Of a stretch of 64,000 nt of DNA, positions 13,193 through 18,669 are shown in pieces. The translations under genes were made by a program, and so were the position numbers. The notes under the pieces were generated by a model. The model saw only the letters and a program-made list of their open reading frames with translations, did not search any database and had not been told where the DNA came from. Location of the stretch: positions 643-64,642 of the forward strand of contig NZ_JAQTYM010000004.1 of the NCBI RefSeq assembly GCF_028688295.1, written 5' to 3'. This DNA comes from Sulfuricurvum sp. (GTDB taxonomy: Bacteria > Campylobacterota > Campylobacteria > Campylobacterales > Sulfurimonadaceae). Within the stretch, counting starts at the first letter, position 1. The number at the start of each line of letters is the position of its first letter.

Positions 13193-13846
13193 TTAGATTT
13201 TTTTACTAAGCGCTTCGATATGAGAACTGTTTCCTAGAACGACTAAAATATCCCCTTTTTCGAGAATATCGTCTTTTTCAAACGAGGTATACCAGATTCC
13301 TTGGTGCTTATAGGCGATCGGTTTGACTTCGTAATCATTTTCAAACATTGGGGATAAGATCGATGTTCCGATCCAAAATGAAGGTACCGTGAGTTTGGCA
13401 ATTTTCATCGTGATAGAGAGATCGATCGTTTCATAATGCATGTTGGCGACCATTTTTTTAACGATTTTTTTAGCTGATTCCATCTCTGGATAGATCACTT
13501 TAGCCGCTCCGAGTTTTGAAAGAATTTGACCATGTACGGTGGTAATCGCTTTAGCGATTACGGTCTCTACCCCTAACTCTTTAAGTGCCATAACGGTGAG
13601 TATACTCGCTTCGATATTTTCACCGATACTGACGACGGCGACATCAACATTGGCTATACCGGCTTCACGTAATGCACGCATATCAGTAGAATCAAGAATA
13701 ATCGCATCTTGAACAAATTCATTAATTTCTCTGACTTGATCCTCGTCTTGATCGATGGCAATGACACTAAGTCCTTGTTGAGCCAACCCTTTGGCAACGT
13801 GAAATCCGAATTTTCCTAAACCGAGTACGGCATAATTTTGATTCAT
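13193..13846 (-). CDS. ktrA: Trk/Ktr K+ uptake NAD-binding subunit (KtrA/TrkA)
   Basis: VLGLGKFG Rossmann motif, GDSTD-like DSTD, VIYPEMESA; RCK domain. Confidence 0.88.
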   Translation of the reverse strand: MNQNYAVLGLGKFGFHVAKGLAQQGLSVIAIDQDEDQVREINEFVQDAIILDSTDMRALREAGIANVDVAVVSIGENIEASILTVMALKELGVETVIAKAITTVHGQILSKLGAAKVIYPEMESAKKIVKKMVANMHYETIDLSITMKIAKLTVPSFWIGTSILSPMFENDYEVKPIAYKHQGIWYTSFEKDDILEKGDILVVLGNSSHIEALSKKI

Positions 13847-15150
13847 AATACAACCTTTGCTTCTGCATATTTGATACGGCTTTGTACCGCTTTACCGACG
13901 ATAACGAGGGTAAATGCGAACACCCCGATACGTCCCATAAACATTAAAAGAATGATATTTGCTTTACCCCAGTCACTAAACAAAGCACTGTAGCTAAGGG
14001 TTCCTCCATTACCTGTGGATAAACCGACTGTACCGAATGCTGAGCATGCTTCAAACAGAGTTCTTAAAAACGGTAATCGCTCGACTTCACTGAGGAGCAC
14101 GGTAGAAAAAACGACATAGATTGATGCGATGAAAATAATCGCATAGGCTTTGTTGATTTGGTACTGAGAAATTGAACGGCGAAATATATGGGCATGGGTA
14201 TCACCTCGCAGCGTATACCATACGCCGATAAGGGCTAATGCCACGGCTGTGATTTTGATCCCTCCGGCTGTTCCGCCCGGTGCCCCACCAATCATCATAA
14301 AAAAGGTAGAAAAAAAGAGGTTGGCATCGCTCAGGGTTGAGAGGTCTATGGTGTTAAAACCTGCTGTACGGTAGTTAACTGAAGCAAACCATGCGGCAAG
14401 GAGTTTTTCATCCCAAGAAAATGATTTTAAGGCATTATTCCATTCCAAAGAGAGGAGTAACCCCATCCCTAACACGATAAGTATTATCGTCATAATCAAT
14501 ACGATTTTGGTATGAGTAGAGAGGCGTAAAATCTCTTTTTTACGGTAGTGATAGAGTTCGGTGAGGACAAGATAACCCACCCCCCCTAAAATGATCAAGA
14601 TAGGGATCGTCAGATTGATCACCCAATCTTTTGAGTATCCCATCATGTTATCACTAAAGAGAGAAAATCCGGCATTGTTAAACGCTGAAATGGCATGAAA
14701 AATCCCATACCAAGCCGCTTTTTCTATCGGCATATCGACCCAAAAACGGAGGGTTAAGACAATCATACCGATCACTTCAATAATGAAAATCGAGCCAAAG
14801 ACAATTTTTAAAAATCGTACAAGCCCGTCCATACCTGGATAATTGAGGGATTCTTGGAGGATCAGTCGATCGCGATGACCGATTTTTTGACGGCGCATAA
14901 CGGCTAAGAAGGTAACCGCTGTCATGTATCCTAATCCCCCGATTTGGATGAGGAGCATAATAATCACTTGCCCCATAGGGGTAAAATCAACAGGGGTATC
15001 TTTTACAATCAATCCGGTTACGCACACTGCAGAAGTAGAGGTAAAAAGTGCATCGATAAATCGAAGCTCTCCGTAATGGGCAAAAGGCATAAGTAGTAGT
15101 AACGTTCCGAATCCGATTAGCCCTATAAAGCTGAATAGGATTAGTTTCAT
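13843..15150 (-). CDS. ktrB: Trk/Ktr K+ uptake membrane subunit (KtrB/TrkH)
   Basis: Four pore loops: SAVCVTGL, SAFNNAGF, RTAGFNT, SAFGTVGLS; GGTAGGIK. Confidence 0.92.
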   Translation of the reverse strand: MKLILFSFIGLIGFGTLLLLMPFAHYGELRFIDALFTSTSAVCVTGLIVKDTPVDFTPMGQVIIMLLIQIGGLGYMTAVTFLAVMRRQKIGHRDRLILQESLNYPGMDGLVRFLKIVFGSIFIIEVIGMIVLTLRFWVDMPIEKAAWYGIFHAISAFNNAGFSLFSDNMMGYSKDWVINLTIPILIILGGVGYLVLTELYHYRKKEILRLSTHTKIVLIMTIILIVLGMGLLLSLEWNNALKSFSWDEKLLAAWFASVNYRTAGFNTIDLSTLSDANLFFSTFFMMIGGAPGGTAGGIKITAVALALIGVWYTLRGDTHAHIFRRSISQYQINKAYAIIFIASIYVVFSTVLLSEVERLPFLRTLFEACSAFGTVGLSTGNGGTLSYSALFSDWGKANIILLMFMGRIGVFAFTLVIVGKAVQSRIKYAEAKVVL

Positions 15151-15168: not shown

Positions 15169-15873
15169 TTACTCCTTTGGGTAAGATGAATTTTCACAAA
15201 AAAAACGGTAGCCAATCCCCATCTCTGTCATGATGTAGTGGGGGCGGGTAGGGTCATCTTCGATTTTTTTTCGTAAAGAGTTAATAAACGTTCGAAGATA
15301 CTGCATCTCTTGTTGATATCCGACCCCCCAAACTTCTTTGAGTAAACGTGCATGGACTAACACTTGATTGGGATGGAGCATACAGTATTTGAGAAGATTG
15401 AATTCGGTTGGGGTGAGTTTTAGAAGCTGCGTATGTTTGTAGGCACTATGGAGTTGTGTGTCGATCGATAATGAACCGCATGTCAGAATAGGTGATGATG
15501 AATTCAAACCTGATGCGCGGCGATAAGCGCTCCGCATCCGAGCAAATAATTCATGCATTGAGAAAGGTTTCGTGACATAATCATCGGCACCCATATCGAG
15601 TGAAGTGACAATCTCTTTTTCATCATTACGGGCTGAGAGGATAATAATCGGTGTTGTCACTTCATGGCGTACCATTTTGATAAAGCTTTTGCCATCGCCA
15701 TCTGGCAATCCTAAATCGAGGAGAATAATATCGGGCTTATGTACTTGAAAATGGCGGTGAGCACTTTTTAGATCTTCAGCAATGAGTGATTTGTATCCCT
15801 CTTGTTCCAAAGCAAACGAGAGCATTTTATGAAGCGCTTTGTCATCTTCAATGATGAGGACGAGTTCTTTCAT
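15169..15873 (-). CDS. kdpE: KdpE-like OmpR-family response regulator
   Basis: DLGLPDGDG, GADDYVTKPF, LTPTEF, YLRTFINSLRKKIEDDPTRPHYIMTEMGIGYRF. Confidence 0.82.
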   Translation of the reverse strand: MKELVLIIEDDKALHKMLSFALEQEGYKSLIAEDLKSAHRHFQVHKPDIILLDLGLPDGDGKSFIKMVRHEVTTPIIILSARNDEKEIVTSLDMGADDYVTKPFSMHELFARMRSAYRRASGLNSSSPILTCGSLSIDTQLHSAYKHTQLLKLTPTEFNLLKYCMLHPNQVLVHARLLKEVWGVGYQQEMQYLRTFINSLRKKIEDDPTRPHYIMTEMGIGYRFFCENSSYPKE

Positions 15874-16889
15874 AATAACTCTTTTGGACGAATATCAGGG
15901 TGTTTGATCGTCGGTAATATCACCTCTAAAAAGACTCCTCCATTGCCGTTATACGCAGTAATGACTCCTTGATGTGCGGTAACTATCTTTTTACAGATCG
16001 ATAGTCCAATACCACTTCCCCCCATATCGGCAGTGTTCTCTAAACGGTAGAATTTTTCAAACATATTTTTGAGATCGGCTTTTTTGATGGGAGGGCTTTG
16101 ATTAAAGACGCTAATCTGAATCGAATCGTTGAGGCTTTGGATCGTGAGCGAGATCAAGGTGTCGTCATTGGAATATTTTATTCCATTATCGAGGAGATTG
16201 ACCAAAAGCCGCACCAGTAAAGCGGTATCTCCCCAAAAGAGAGGAAGCTCAGGATCGATAGAAGAGGCAATGAGTTGATGATCTTGATCAAACTCTTGGA
16301 GAGCAATACCCACTAAATCTTCCCAATCACACCATTGGGGCTGTAATAACGTTTGGGTATTTTGGAGTCGTGCACTGTCGAGGAGGTTGAGAATCAAGCG
16401 ATTCATTTGTTGGCTTGATTGTTTGATTTGGACAACAATACGGTTATGATCTGATTCATTCAGCTTCTCTCTTTTGTGAAGGAGGGAAATATTTCCTATG
16501 ATCGAGGAGAGCGGTGTTTTAAGATCATGCGAAAGGGTACTGAGCAATACATCTTTGATTGCAGTGGAATGGAGCCTTCGGGATTGAAACGTAATGATAT
16601 AGCCGACAACGTAAAAAAGGATAAAACTCCATGCGTATATGAGATTATGGACATTGAAACTGTATTTAGGAGGGATGTAGAGCAAATCGAAAAGGATGAC
16701 AGAGATCGTGGTGATAATCATAGTAGCAACCATATCACCGCGTAATGCGATGACCAATACAGGGATAAGATGAAGAATTGCAATATTGATCAAACCGATA
16801 GATTCAGTGAATCTTGTACCGATGAGTGTAATAAACACTTGTATAAAAAAAGGTAAGAAATAGTGTCGATAAGGGCGCAAGAAAATCAT
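15870..16889 (-). CDS. Minimal KdpD-like sensor histidine kinase (4-TM DUF4118-type domain + HisKA + HATPase)
   Basis: FDLLYIPPKYSF (KdpD TM motif), LSHDLKTPL H-box, NLLDNGIKY, GSGIGLSIC. Only 339 aa; no KdpD N-terminal, Usp or GAF domains. Confidence 0.82.
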   Translation of the reverse strand: MIFLRPYRHYFLPFFIQVFITLIGTRFTESIGLINIAILHLIPVLVIALRGDMVATMIITTISVILFDLLYIPPKYSFNVHNLIYAWSFILFYVVGYIITFQSRRLHSTAIKDVLLSTLSHDLKTPLSSIIGNISLLHKREKLNESDHNRIVVQIKQSSQQMNRLILNLLDSARLQNTQTLLQPQWCDWEDLVGIALQEFDQDHQLIASSIDPELPLFWGDTALLVRLLVNLLDNGIKYSNDDTLISLTIQSLNDSIQISVFNQSPPIKKADLKNMFEKFYRLENTADMGGSGIGLSICKKIVTAHQGVITAYNGNGGVFLEVILPTIKHPDIRPKELL

Positions 16890-16990
16890 TTATTAAGTGT
16901 TGAAGCCAATTTTACTAACACGGTAATCACCAATCCGAATAAGATAACAAACTCTGTAATAACTAGCCAAATATTATCCAAAAAGTGCAT
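16886..16990 (-). CDS. Unannotated 34-aa single-pass membrane peptide (MHFLDNIWLVITEFVILFGLVITVLVKLASTLNK)
   Basis: AAGGA SD 6 nt upstream of the ATG; one hydrophobic helix; its TGA overlaps the kinase ATG (ATGA); TATAAT -10 at 17018-17023. Confidence 0.72.
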   Translation of the reverse strand: MHFLDNIWLVITEFVILFGLVITVLVKLASTLNK

Positions 16991-17017
16991 GGATGTTCCT
17001 TGATTTTTTGTAAGGAA

Positions 17018-17050
17018 ATTATAGAGTGTATGGTATCAATGAGGTATCAA
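17018..17050 (-). promoter_or_regulatory. Promoter (-10 TATAAT) with 11-bp-phased direct repeat TTGATACC-TCA-TTGATACC; candidate KdpE-like operator
   Basis: ggtatcaa at 17032-17039 and 17043-17050 on +; attata at 17018-17023. A second degenerate pair lies at 17156-17173. Confidence 0.6.
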
Positions 17051-17187
17051 GATTGACTAGGAGAGAGATTCCATAAATAAATGACTTTGCATAGGGTGAT
17101 CTTGTTACGATTTGGCAAAGCAGTTATTTATGGAAATGAAATTTTAGTGTAGAGTGTATCAAAAAGGGATCAAAAAAGTGGTTCGGC

Positions 17188-18669
17188 TCAGTAGCCGAAC
17201 ATCATTTTGAGAATAAAGAAGAAAAGTGCTGCCATACCTGCTGCTGCGGGGAGGGTGATAATCCATGCCATAGCGATAGGTTTCATCAGTTTCCAGTTTG
17301 CATCTCGGTTGAGCATACCGATACCGATTACAGCACCGACGAGGATATGGGTGGAGGATACCGGAATCCCCATGACGGTTGCGAGGAGGATAACGAGTGT
17401 CGCACCCAACTCTGCGGCAAACCCGGTGACCGGGAAAATTTCAGTGATACGACTTCCGACAGTATCGATAACTTCTTTTCCGATAAACCAGAGTCCTGCT
17501 ACCAACGCGACACCGAATGTTGCCATAGCAATGAAAGGGACGGGTGACTCGGTATTGATTTGTCCTGTTGCCAAAATATCGATAATAGCTGCAAATGGCC
17601 CGATAGCATTTGCGATGTCATTAGCCCCATGACTAAACGCGAAAGATGACGCGGTGAGGACTTGAAGCATGCTAAAAACACGCATTGTTGCTTTGTGAGG
17701 TGTATCTTTGTGCATTACTTTGATAATCGCATACACAACACCGTACATGAGGGTTGACATGACGGCAAGCAGCATATAGATTTGTACATCATTCAAACCC
17801 AGATCAGCATTTTTAAGCCCTTTAAACAACAACATCCCGGCAATCATCGCAGTTCCGAATGCTGCAACGATCGGGGCATGCGTACGTAGGGCATAAAAAG
17901 CATTTTGTTTTTTCTTGAGACGGTTTAGCTCATGTACCTGATCTTCATGCTGTGCTTTCTCTTCAGCAGTTGCCGTGGTTTCATCGTGCGCTGATTTTAA
18001 CGTTGTGATTTGGGTTTTGATGTCATCAATATGGGCTTGTACGTTGTCGTTATAATCGAGGATATTCTTTTTCAAATACCAATAAATTCCATACGAGGCC
18101 ATTCCTCCGAGTACAGGAGAAACCACCCAACTGATAGCAATCTTGACAATTTGATCCCAGTGAACGAGGGCAAAAACTGATTCACCTACTTCCATTGTTA
18201 CATATCCAAGTGCGACAGATCCACCTAAAACCCCTCCAACGATTGAATGGGTTGTAGAGACAGGGTAGCCTTTAAAGGTTGCATACAGAAGCCATGTCCC
18301 TGCAGAGAGGAGGGACCCCATCATAACGAAAACAAGGAGCATTGGATCAAAATCCATTGCCGAAACATCGACAATCCCTTTTCGGATCGTATTCGTAACT
18401 TCCGCACCGGCGAGCATCGCACCGCCGAGTTCGAAAATAGCGGCAATCATTAGAGCTTGTTTAACAGTAAGTGTTTTAGCCCCTACACTCGTGCCAAAGG
18501 AGTTAGCAACATCGTTACCGCCGATATTGAATGCCATAAAGACCCCAAAAAGGGTAGCTAAAACAAAAAGAGTATAGTTGTTTTCGAGATAGTTAAATCC
18601 CCAGACCAAAAAAAATGTGGTCATAAGAACGAAAATACCGCCAAAAAAAAGATTGTCGCGTGAGAACAT
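17188..18669 (-). CDS. Inorganic phosphate transporter (PiT/PHO4 family)
   Basis: Both signature motifs: GGNDVANSFGTSVG and HGANDIANAIGP; PVSTTHS / PVSSTHI. Confidence 0.93.
   Translation of the reverse strand: MFSRDNLFFGGIFVLMTTFFLVWGFNYLENNYTLFVLATLFGVFMAFNIGGNDVANSFGTSVGAKTLTVKQALMIAAIFELGGAMLAGAEVTNTIRKGIVDVSAMDFDPMLLVFVMMGSLLSAGTWLLYATFKGYPVSTTHSIVGGVLGGSVALGYVTMEVGESVFALVHWDQIVKIAISWVVSPVLGGMASYGIYWYLKKNILDYNDNVQAHIDDIKTQITTLKSAHDETTATAEEKAQHEDQVHELNRLKKKQNAFYALRTHAPIVAAFGTAMIAGMLLFKGLKNADLGLNDVQIYMLLAVMSTLMYGVVYAIIKVMHKDTPHKATMRVFSMLQVLTASSFAFSHGANDIANAIGPFAAIIDILATGQINTESPVPFIAMATFGVALVAGLWFIGKEVIDTVGSRITEIFPVTGFAAELGATLVILLATVMGIPVSSTHILVGAVIGIGMLNRDANWKLMKPIAMAWIITLPAAAGMAALFFFILKMMFGY

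Follow-up and report, generated by a model that had tools for sequence, protein, structure and literature searches.

The first gene of a potassium-uptake operon in Sulfuricurvum sp. encodes a 34-residue single-helix membrane peptide, which is proposed here, with a probability of about one half, to be a co-translated accessory partner ("fifth helix") of the intramembrane-sensing, minimal KdpD-type histidine kinase encoded directly downstream of it. The operon is located in the window, the whole stretch of 64,000 nucleotides from contig NZ_JAQTYM010000004.1 (positions 643 to 64,642 of the forward strand) that was analysed, and all coordinates given without a contig or locus name refer to it. The kinase is favored as the partner because the tightest and most general link of the peptide is that to the kinase, because at least six sampled lineages whose operon is without ktrBA genes retain the peptide together with the kinase, and because a one-sided stripe of residues that includes a membrane Asn and Glu resembles a specific helix-helix contact. 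As judged from sequence comparison, the peptide represents a new, unnamed and lineage-restricted family with two sequence types, found in a single Campylobacterales family, in more than 35 of its genomes. The theme of small membrane proteins tied to sensor kinases and two-component systems is already known. The peptide and kinase genes are laid out as follows:

16886..16990, minus strand: gene of the peptide MHFLDNIWLVITEFVILFGLVITVLVKLASTLNK, with 34 codons and a TGA stop (reading of open reading frames, ORFs)
16997..17001, minus strand: Shine-Dalgarno sequence AAGGA, six bases 5' of the peptide ATG (sequence reading)
16886..16889, minus strand: ATGA overlap of the peptide stop codon TGA (16888-16886) and the kinase start codon ATG (16889-16887), the presumed site of termination-reinitiation
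15870..16889, minus strand: minimal KdpD-type histidine kinase, 339 amino acids, with DUF4118, HisKA and HATPase_c domains (domain search)

The Shine-Dalgarno sequence, the single hydrophobic helix, the ATGA overlap and the position as first gene after the promoter are all found where an earlier note on this DNA had placed them. That note had also looked to a conserved ORF upstream of orthologous kinase genes, and such an ORF is open over 32-35 codons in at least 22 genomes (type A). Homologs precede the kinase gene in genomes G001, G021, G010, G014, G022, G027, G348, and G315. The type-A profile matches in 19 of the 353 genomes of one Campylobacterales family, and three more copies, in G470, G472, and G132, were spotted by eye. 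When 401 genomes sampled across the order were searched, the profile matched in three of them, and nothing real was found outside the family; the order-level matches in G041 and G135 are weak, lie inside unrelated genes and were rejected as noise. The type-A peptides occur only in this operon context and in one copy per genome.

Nine aligned peptide ORFs have a pooled proportion of synonymous differences (pS) of 0.75, which is saturated, and a proportion of nonsynonymous differences (pN) of 0.30. The mean pairwise differences at the first, second, and third codon positions are 0.455, 0.182, and 0.582. This pattern of substitutions identifies the peptide ORF as a gene that codes for a protein and is subject to purifying selection. 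The notion that it is a chance open frame in the 5' leader, or a structured RNA element, and not a gene can draw on the short length of the ORF and on an antisense frame that is likewise open in most copies. However, the coding-pattern conservation extends over all of the at least 22 genomes, and the antisense frame is interrupted by stops in G027 and G315. The RNA of the leader and the ORF has no Rfam match at E < 0.9, and its fold energy is no better than that of shuffled sequences (z = 0.48), so that a riboswitch or other RNA element at this position was rejected. The probability that the ORF is not a gene is considered almost negligible.

The conservation of the peptide is concentrated on one side of a helix. 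Among 18 distinct type-A sequences, W8, E13, and L20 never vary, N6 and K34 hardly vary, and position 27 is occupied by Lys or Arg in every sequence. The residues N6, E13, L20, K/R27, and K34 follow each other at an exact spacing of seven and form one helix face; the periodicity of conservation peaks at approximately 155°, which is the third harmonic of the heptad. The AlphaFold2 (AF2) prediction calculated from the peptide alignment is a single helix comprising residues 2-33, with a predicted local distance difference test score (pLDDT) of 91.5. Based on its charges, namely an acidic N-terminal end and the residues K27 and K34 near the other end, the peptide is predicted to have its N-terminus outside and its C-terminus inside the cell.

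The comparison of the family profile with 1.84 billion representative proteins resulted in ten matches only, all of them to free-standing proteins of 25-35 residues. Because the profile never matches a longer protein, the peptide is regarded as a free-standing subunit, and its origin by gene fission from a kinase with five transmembrane (TM) helices was rejected. The gene is not entirely "hidden", as the earlier note had put it: genes for identical or sister peptides are annotated, without a name, in records from NCBI, JGI, ENA, and Logan.

The link between peptide and kinase that the earlier note had drawn is borne out by the junction of the two genes and by the loci without ktrBA into which the peptide follows the kinase. 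The ATGA junction is present in 19 of the 19 loci in which the kinase gene lies directly downstream of the peptide gene. The copies from genus g104 (e.g., MSATWELGLEVFILVILVIIILVKLAFNNTKN) are separated from the kinase gene by a gap of 6 nt, without overlap. A tetramer resembling a Shine-Dalgarno sequence precedes the peptide gene in 12 of the 19 loci, with weaker purine runs in the others, and the kinase gene in one of the 19. Neither sequence reading nor a terminator and promoter scan identified a terminator or promoter between the two genes, which are thus likely to share one transcript. Termination-reinitiation occurs at overlapping stop and start codons, and the translation of the kinase most likely depends on ribosomes terminating on the peptide.

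The kinase is a relative of the KdpD core and not a full KdpD. The KdpD model of NCBIfam is its top match, but it covers only positions 662-890, with 185 bits against a cut-off of 1123. A full KdpD has approximately 900 amino acids and comprises KdpD_N, Usp, a four-TM DUF4118, GAF, HisKA, and HATPase domains, of which the kinase from the window lacks KdpD_N, Usp, and GAF. In the AF2 model of the kinase (mean pLDDT 72.5) there are four TM helices, and TM4 belongs to a helix of residues 83-138 that is continuous with the dimerization and histidine phosphotransfer (DHp) helix bearing H121. The N-terminus of the kinase (R5, R8, and H9) should be cytoplasmic. A periplasmic or cytoplasmic sensor domain is lacking, so that signals have to reach the kinase via its membrane bundle or via partners. 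The proposal of the earlier note that the peptide replaces the missing N-terminal sensory domains is not supported, because there are kinases of the same architecture that have no peptide (L042-L047, G092, and G083); furthermore, a helix of 34 residues cannot stand in for approximately 500 residues of cytoplasmic domains.

A kinase scan identified this clade in 44 of the 353 family genomes. Type-A peptides, or peptides of a shorter type B described below, are present in 37 of these 44: the type-A profile detected 19 and the type-B profile 15, and three were spotted by eye. The peptide thus has these attributes of the small-regulator class: it stands alone as a single-pass peptide, is subject to purifying selection, and co-occurs with a single lineage of kinases.

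The remaining features of the operon and its 5' region are as follows:

15169..15873, minus strand: OmpR-family response regulator; its top NCBIfam model is KdpE, under the curated cut-off
13843..15150, minus strand: KtrB/TrkH-family K+ translocating subunit (domain search)
13193..13846, minus strand: KtrA gating subunit with TrkA_N and TrkA_C domains, the final gene of the operon (domain search)
17181..17200, minus strand: intrinsic terminator that ends the upstream PHO4 gene (phosphate transporter) and sets the operon's 5' boundary
17034..17050, minus strand: direct repeat TTGATA-N5-TTGATA with an 11-bp period, a candidate regulator-binding box (sequence reading)
17018..17023, minus strand: TATAAT, the likely -10 hexamer, 10 nt past the repeat (conserved spacing to the repeat)

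The genes for the peptide, kinase, KdpE-like regulator, KtrB, and KtrA follow each other in this order on the minus strand, with 4-nt overlaps at the kinase/regulator and ktrB/ktrA junctions and approximately 18 nt between the regulator gene and ktrB. The peptide gene is the first cistron, because the PHO4 terminator, the TTGATA repeat, and the TATAAT hexamer are all positioned upstream of it. The leader from TATAAT to the peptide ATG is approximately 20-27 nt long.

According to tblastn synteny, the window shares the order peptide-kinase-regulator-ktrB-ktrA with G001, G021, G010, G014, G027, G348, and G315; the full order is also present in G468, G470, G472, and G132. In G022, the peptide-kinase-regulator genes adjoin motAB, and ktrBA is located on another contig, after PHO4 and without a peptide. 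Two metagenome contigs with G022-like peptides (P0014 and P0017) have the order MotA-MotB-peptide-kinase-regulator, with a 4-nt overlap at the kinase. These three and the type-B genomes G356, G241, and G651 make up the at least six sampled lineages in which the peptide, kinase, and regulator genes occur without ktrBA in the operon.

The type-B peptide, which has 26 residues (e.g., MSVADIAMIVILVILTVIVLIKLPNA), precedes a sister subclade of kinases of 45-50% identity in genus g26 and was found in 16 g26 genomes. At its junction, the stop codon TAA of the peptide overlaps the ATG of the kinase (TAATG). The residues M8, L15, K22, L23, P24, and A26 are invariant. The ktrBA genes follow the regulator gene in G412 and G539, and are not found there in G356, G241, and G651. 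The profile-profile alignment of types A and B is weak (probability 21%), with a register that pairs K27 with K22, L20 with L15, and E13 with M8.

Related operons from other families of the order differ in this position. G092 and G083 contain the box, kinase, regulator, and ktrB, and no peptide. In G056:C25 (L055, reverse complement 323-460), an ORF of 42-45 residues with a single TM helix (MIFFDVIASFVLLLLMALVIYKLIIAYKKDMGSKYIKNIDKK) and a strong Shine-Dalgarno sequence is located between the box and promoter and the kinase gene. Its homology to the peptide family was rejected (hhalign probability 2%), which suggests that a leader ORF encoding a TM helix was acquired independently in the G056 lineage. 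The leader of G092:C2 (L058), which extends over approximately 220 nt between the box and promoter and the kinase gene, contains two tandem copies of a GC-rich element of approximately 70 nt (gcgcgggcgttgcg...caaaactcagcgttagcgtagtctttagagctttgc) in AT-rich surroundings; these may be a repeat of the repetitive extragenic palindromic (REP) kind or a structured leader.

Several observations weigh against a partnership of the peptide with the kinase. Six paralogous kinase-regulator pairs (L042-L047), including one from the same genome as the window (G000:C28), have neither the peptide nor ktr genes; kinases of the same architecture in G092 and G083, which belong to other families, are likewise without a peptide, and G009 gave no peptide match in the family scan. 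No kinase TM residue tracks the presence of the peptide cleanly; for example, there is no basic partner for E13, and the sole group-specific columns of the kinase TM region, A37 and N/D82, provide no charge partner. The buried Glu that the earlier note had described is invariant in the 32-35-residue type, but the weak alignment of the two types, which retains the conserved stripe, places Met at this position of the 26-residue type, so that the Glu is not universal. In G036 (L073), an intact peptide gene is positioned directly before ktrBA, and the kinase and regulator genes have apparently been deleted. The distance correlations of the operon proteins give no preference for the kinase TM domain (n = 9, shared phylogeny). 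A scrambled CbrX of the same length, which is discussed below, restored the production of its kinase in Pseudomonas putida (PMC6591292).

In the kinase tree, the G022 copy, which has a peptide, is sister to the peptide-less paralogs (support 99/96), and together they are sister to the peptide-plus-Ktr clade. Because of this branching, the peptide is placed in the common ancestor and would have been lost once. In five of the six peptide-less paralogs, TACAAT is located seven bases 5' of the kinase ATG, and these kinases look as if they were translated from leaderless mRNAs, unlike the copy in the window with its coupled initiation. The paralog in the genome of the window (G000:C28:8799-9785; L042 5979-6998, minus strand) forms a second mini-KdpD/KdpE pair, with 50% identity and without a peptide. 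There is no K+ transporter beside this pair, and a biotin carboxylase gene is located divergently upstream.

The dependence of kinase translation on the peptide ORF has a precedent in P. putida, in which the small hydrophobic ORF CbrX overlaps, and is translationally coupled to, the sensor kinase gene cbrA (PMC6591292). The production of CbrA needs the CbrX ORF to be translated, but not the identity of the CbrX peptide (PMC6591292). As in that system, a small conserved ORF for a membrane helix is the first cistron, overlaps the kinase start, and is probably co-transcribed with the kinase gene, which has no ribosome-binding site of its own; the dependence of the kinase on the ORF is deduced here from this layout. 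CbrX differs in having two predicted helices, a 17-nt overlap, and an unrelated kinase with an SLC5-like TM domain and PAS, and it has no sequence similarity to the peptide.

It is therefore worth considering whether the peptide ORF, too, is mainly a cis-acting translational device that feeds ribosomes to a kinase start without a Shine-Dalgarno sequence; its product may then bring the complex to the membrane, and the released peptide would have no regulatory role. The kinase gene lacks a Shine-Dalgarno sequence in 18 of the 19 loci and always overlaps the ORF, and the layout is kept in types A and B despite sequences that have diverged almost past recognition. The non-homologous 42-residue TM ORF at the equivalent place in G056 and the different initiation of the peptide-less paralogs, with TACAAT near the ATG and a leaderless look, are also in line with such a device. 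A role restricted to coupling is nevertheless rather doubtful. The in-helix Glu and the Trp are invariant, and the stripe of five residues at a spacing of seven persists although the synonymous sites are saturated. The length is fixed at 32-35 codons, and G036 keeps the ORF with all its hallmark residues without a kinase gene behind it. Whereas the identity of CbrX is dispensable, the invariant Trp, Glu, and Leu and the heptad stripe speak in favor of selection acting on what the ORF described here encodes. Coupling and partnership are compatible, and coupling is a part of the favored reading that the peptide is an accessory helix of the kinase.

The second candidate partner is the transporter. 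KtrB and KdpA belong to the same transporter superfamily. The peptide could be a small subunit of KtrAB that acts on KtrB as KdpF does on KdpA, and its place before the kinase gene would then be a mere first-gene position. KdpA binds the single-helix KdpF (PMC12648545, PMC6255902), which provides the analogy; in addition, ktrB-ktrA is present in the same operon at most type-A loci, and kinases of this type manage without a peptide. The peptide of G036 and that of the independently assembled Logan contig L077 keep all hallmark residues directly upstream of ktrBA, with the kinase and regulator genes apparently deleted. In G036, the ATGA is changed to ATAA, and a remnant of the N-terminal kinase sequence (FYPF) is fused to the regulator-ktrB spacer, followed by ktrB. 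Contig L077 has the same PHO4-peptide-TrkH-KtrA order. For the divergence of its KtrB, the G036 peptide has a rather low identity to the other peptides, but it is not an outlier, and relaxed selection on this orphan copy is not clearly indicated.

However, the tight and universal link is to the kinase (19 of 19 ATGA junctions) and never to ktrB, at least six lineages have the peptide, kinase, and regulator genes without ktrBA in the operon, and the ktrBA locus of G022 is without a peptide, as are the KtrB-bearing operons of G092 and G083. The type-A profile is confined to 3 of 401 order genomes and 19 of 353 family genomes, and the peptide has no sequence similarity to KdpF. Furthermore, the G036 locus may be decaying. 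At the codon that aligns with the start of ktrB, ATG is replaced by ATC in G036:C1 (L073, approximately 1690-1745) and in G022:C4 (L081, approximately 2490-2530), which is either a rare non-canonical start or a sign of early locus decay. KtrB is otherwise intact in these ktrBA loci lacking the kinase and regulator genes, with 82-86% identity and no stops. The mirror-tree correlations with peptide distances are similar for all four proteins, with r values of 0.64 for the kinase, 0.66 for the regulator, 0.56 for KtrB, and 0.71 for KtrA (n = 9, shared phylogeny), and do not single out a partner; upon removal of the g104 genome G468, the value for the kinase is 0.56 and that for KtrB 0.23 (small n, shared phylogeny). 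On balance, a subunit of KtrAB is regarded as unlikely.

Membership of the peptide in the KdpF family itself (PF09604/TIGR02115) was rejected, whereas a KdpF-like role on KtrB, as suggested in the earlier note, is unlikely but conceivable because of G036, which has the peptide and ktrBA without the kinase. There is no Pfam match at E values up to 10 and, for three family members, no NCBIfam match at E values up to 1. The hhalign comparison of the 18-sequence profile with KdpF of Escherichia coli has a probability of 1.2% over 4 columns. No KdpA (PF03814) was detected in the 93%-complete genome, whereas it was detected in control genomes, and the operon contains ktrB-ktrA instead of kdpABC. The size of the peptide is that expected of KdpF, a single TM helix of approximately 26-30 residues, but this property is generic and does not discriminate. 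KdpF is not known to have a buried Glu. Like KdpF, the 29-residue subunit of KdpFABC, the peptide is a single helix encoded by the first gene of a K+ uptake operon controlled by a KdpE-type regulator, and the candidate partners, the KdpD core and the KdpA relative KtrB, are from the same families. It differs in that the coupling is to the kinase and not to the transporter, and in its predicted orientation, which is opposite to that of mycobacterial KdpF. The N-terminus of the latter is reported to be cytoplasmic, and a two-hybrid assay showed an interaction of mycobacterial KdpF with KdpD (PMC3618439).

If the peptide is an accessory helix of the kinase, the two could act together as follows. 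Ribosomes that finish the peptide would re-initiate on the kinase, so that both are made at one place and in a fixed ratio. The peptide would insert with its N-terminus out and its C-terminus in, and the kinase would start in the cytoplasm, with TM1 running from inside to outside; the peptide and TM1 would resemble consecutive helices of a hairpin split in the cytoplasmic loop. The face formed by N6, E13, L20, K/R27, and K34 may pack against the DUF4118 bundle. This membrane bundle would be the only plausible input site, because there is no sensor domain and TM4 leads straight into the DHp helix. A helix bound to the bundle may set or tune the balance of kinase and phosphatase activities that would control ktrBA and the operon itself. 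It can be speculated that the membrane Glu pairs with a polar residue of TM2 (N35 or H40 of the motif NIAxxH) or participates in cation or proton sensing.

A more specific version of this mechanism would make the peptide the missing input element of the mini-KdpD, a detachable TM helix whose Glu and Asn6 form, together with the conserved NIAxxH motif of TM2, a cation or proton site that reads external K+ in the membrane; the peptide may also dock to KtrB, so that the kinase reads the occupancy of the transporter. This version is improbable as a whole. If it were true, the change from Glu to Met in the 26-residue type would mark lineages that changed or lost the input. It is also conceivable, but very unlikely, that the peptide is independent of both neighbors and forms a homo-oligomer with a cation-conducting or cation-binding ring of Glu residues, or connects the kinase to KtrB and reports flux. 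A heptad stripe with a membrane Asn and Glu is a kind of motif that drives self-association of TM helices, and the peptide occurs with either partner alone. However, nothing specific speaks for independence, type B is without the Glu, and the family occurs nowhere but in this operon context, with one copy per genome.

The operon probably controls its own expression. Almost every one of the 22 peptide loci has the layout TTGAYW-N5-TTGAYW-N10-TAYAAT, which deviates slightly in G027, G510, and genus g104; the operons of G056, G092, and G083 from other families share this layout. The box-bearing loci are the window, L031, L048-L054, L062-L080, L055, L058, and L059. In the peptide-less paralogs, the same repeat is reversed and located approximately 75 nt upstream of the kinase ATG. 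Pho boxes share this direct-repeat geometry, an 11-bp phasing is typical of sites for the OmpR/PhoB family, and KdpE half-sites read TTTATA-N5-TTTACA. The box is likely to be an autoregulatory site of the operon's own OmpR/KdpE-type regulator, with positive autoregulation. A sigma-70 scan requiring a -35 element did not find a promoter upstream of the peptide gene, which is to be expected because the promoter would be activator-dependent. The strict repeat pattern occurs six times in the genome, compared with three occurrences expected, and no other match to TTGATA-N5-TTGAYA in this genome is placed convincingly enough to indicate a wider regulon.

Other KdpD-like kinases were observed in the same genus. 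A third mini-KdpD clade (L011-L023; e.g., G029:C99, G023:C1, and G035:C1), with 34-37% identity, is encoded directly downstream of a gene for a Kup-like K+ transporter, as judged by eye from the sequence. KdpD cores without sensor domains thus seem, more than once in this lineage, to have become neighbors of K+ uptake genes other than Kdp (Ktr and Kup). A full-length KdpD of approximately 896 amino acids is also present in some genomes of the genus. Five kinase homologs contain a single in-frame TGA (G295:C73, G682:C24, G540:C3, G586:C103, and G017:C63), which could be due to recoding, a common pseudogene, or assembly errors. A frameshift divides the kinase gene in G469 (L075).

Kinases without an extramembrane sensor domain can receive their input from a co-encoded membrane partner, as in LiaF-LiaS, BceAB-BceS, and SaeP/SaeQ-SaeS. 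Those partners are full-size proteins or transporters, whereas the candidate partner described here is a helix of 34 residues, and the peptide-less paralogs show that it is not obligatory for the kinase fold. Smaller regulators are known as well: MgrB, SafA, and UgtS bind PhoQ, and YoaI binds EnvZ (PMC12648545), whereas ScrA acts on SaeS within the membrane (PMC12239555). Like the peptide, these are single-pass proteins of approximately 30-65 residues for which an action on the TM or periplasmic portion of a kinase is known or has been proposed, and the peptide gene resembles mgrB in being apparently controlled by the system that its product would modulate. In contrast to these separately transcribed, conditional, and non-homologous regulators, the peptide is an obligate overlapping first cistron and looks like a constitutive subunit.

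The sensing of K+ by KdpD-type kinases is still debated, and in kinases with a four-helix bundle the input must pass through the membrane domain. A separable, co-translated helix would provide a simple handle on this problem: one peptide with one invariant Glu (in type A) and natural variants with and without it, namely type A, type B, and the peptide-less paralog in the same genome. The operon may also be the second natural example, after CbrX-CbrA, of kinase translation that hangs on a micro-ORF. For genome annotation, these operons are headed by a gene of 26-35 codons that is usually unnamed or uncalled.

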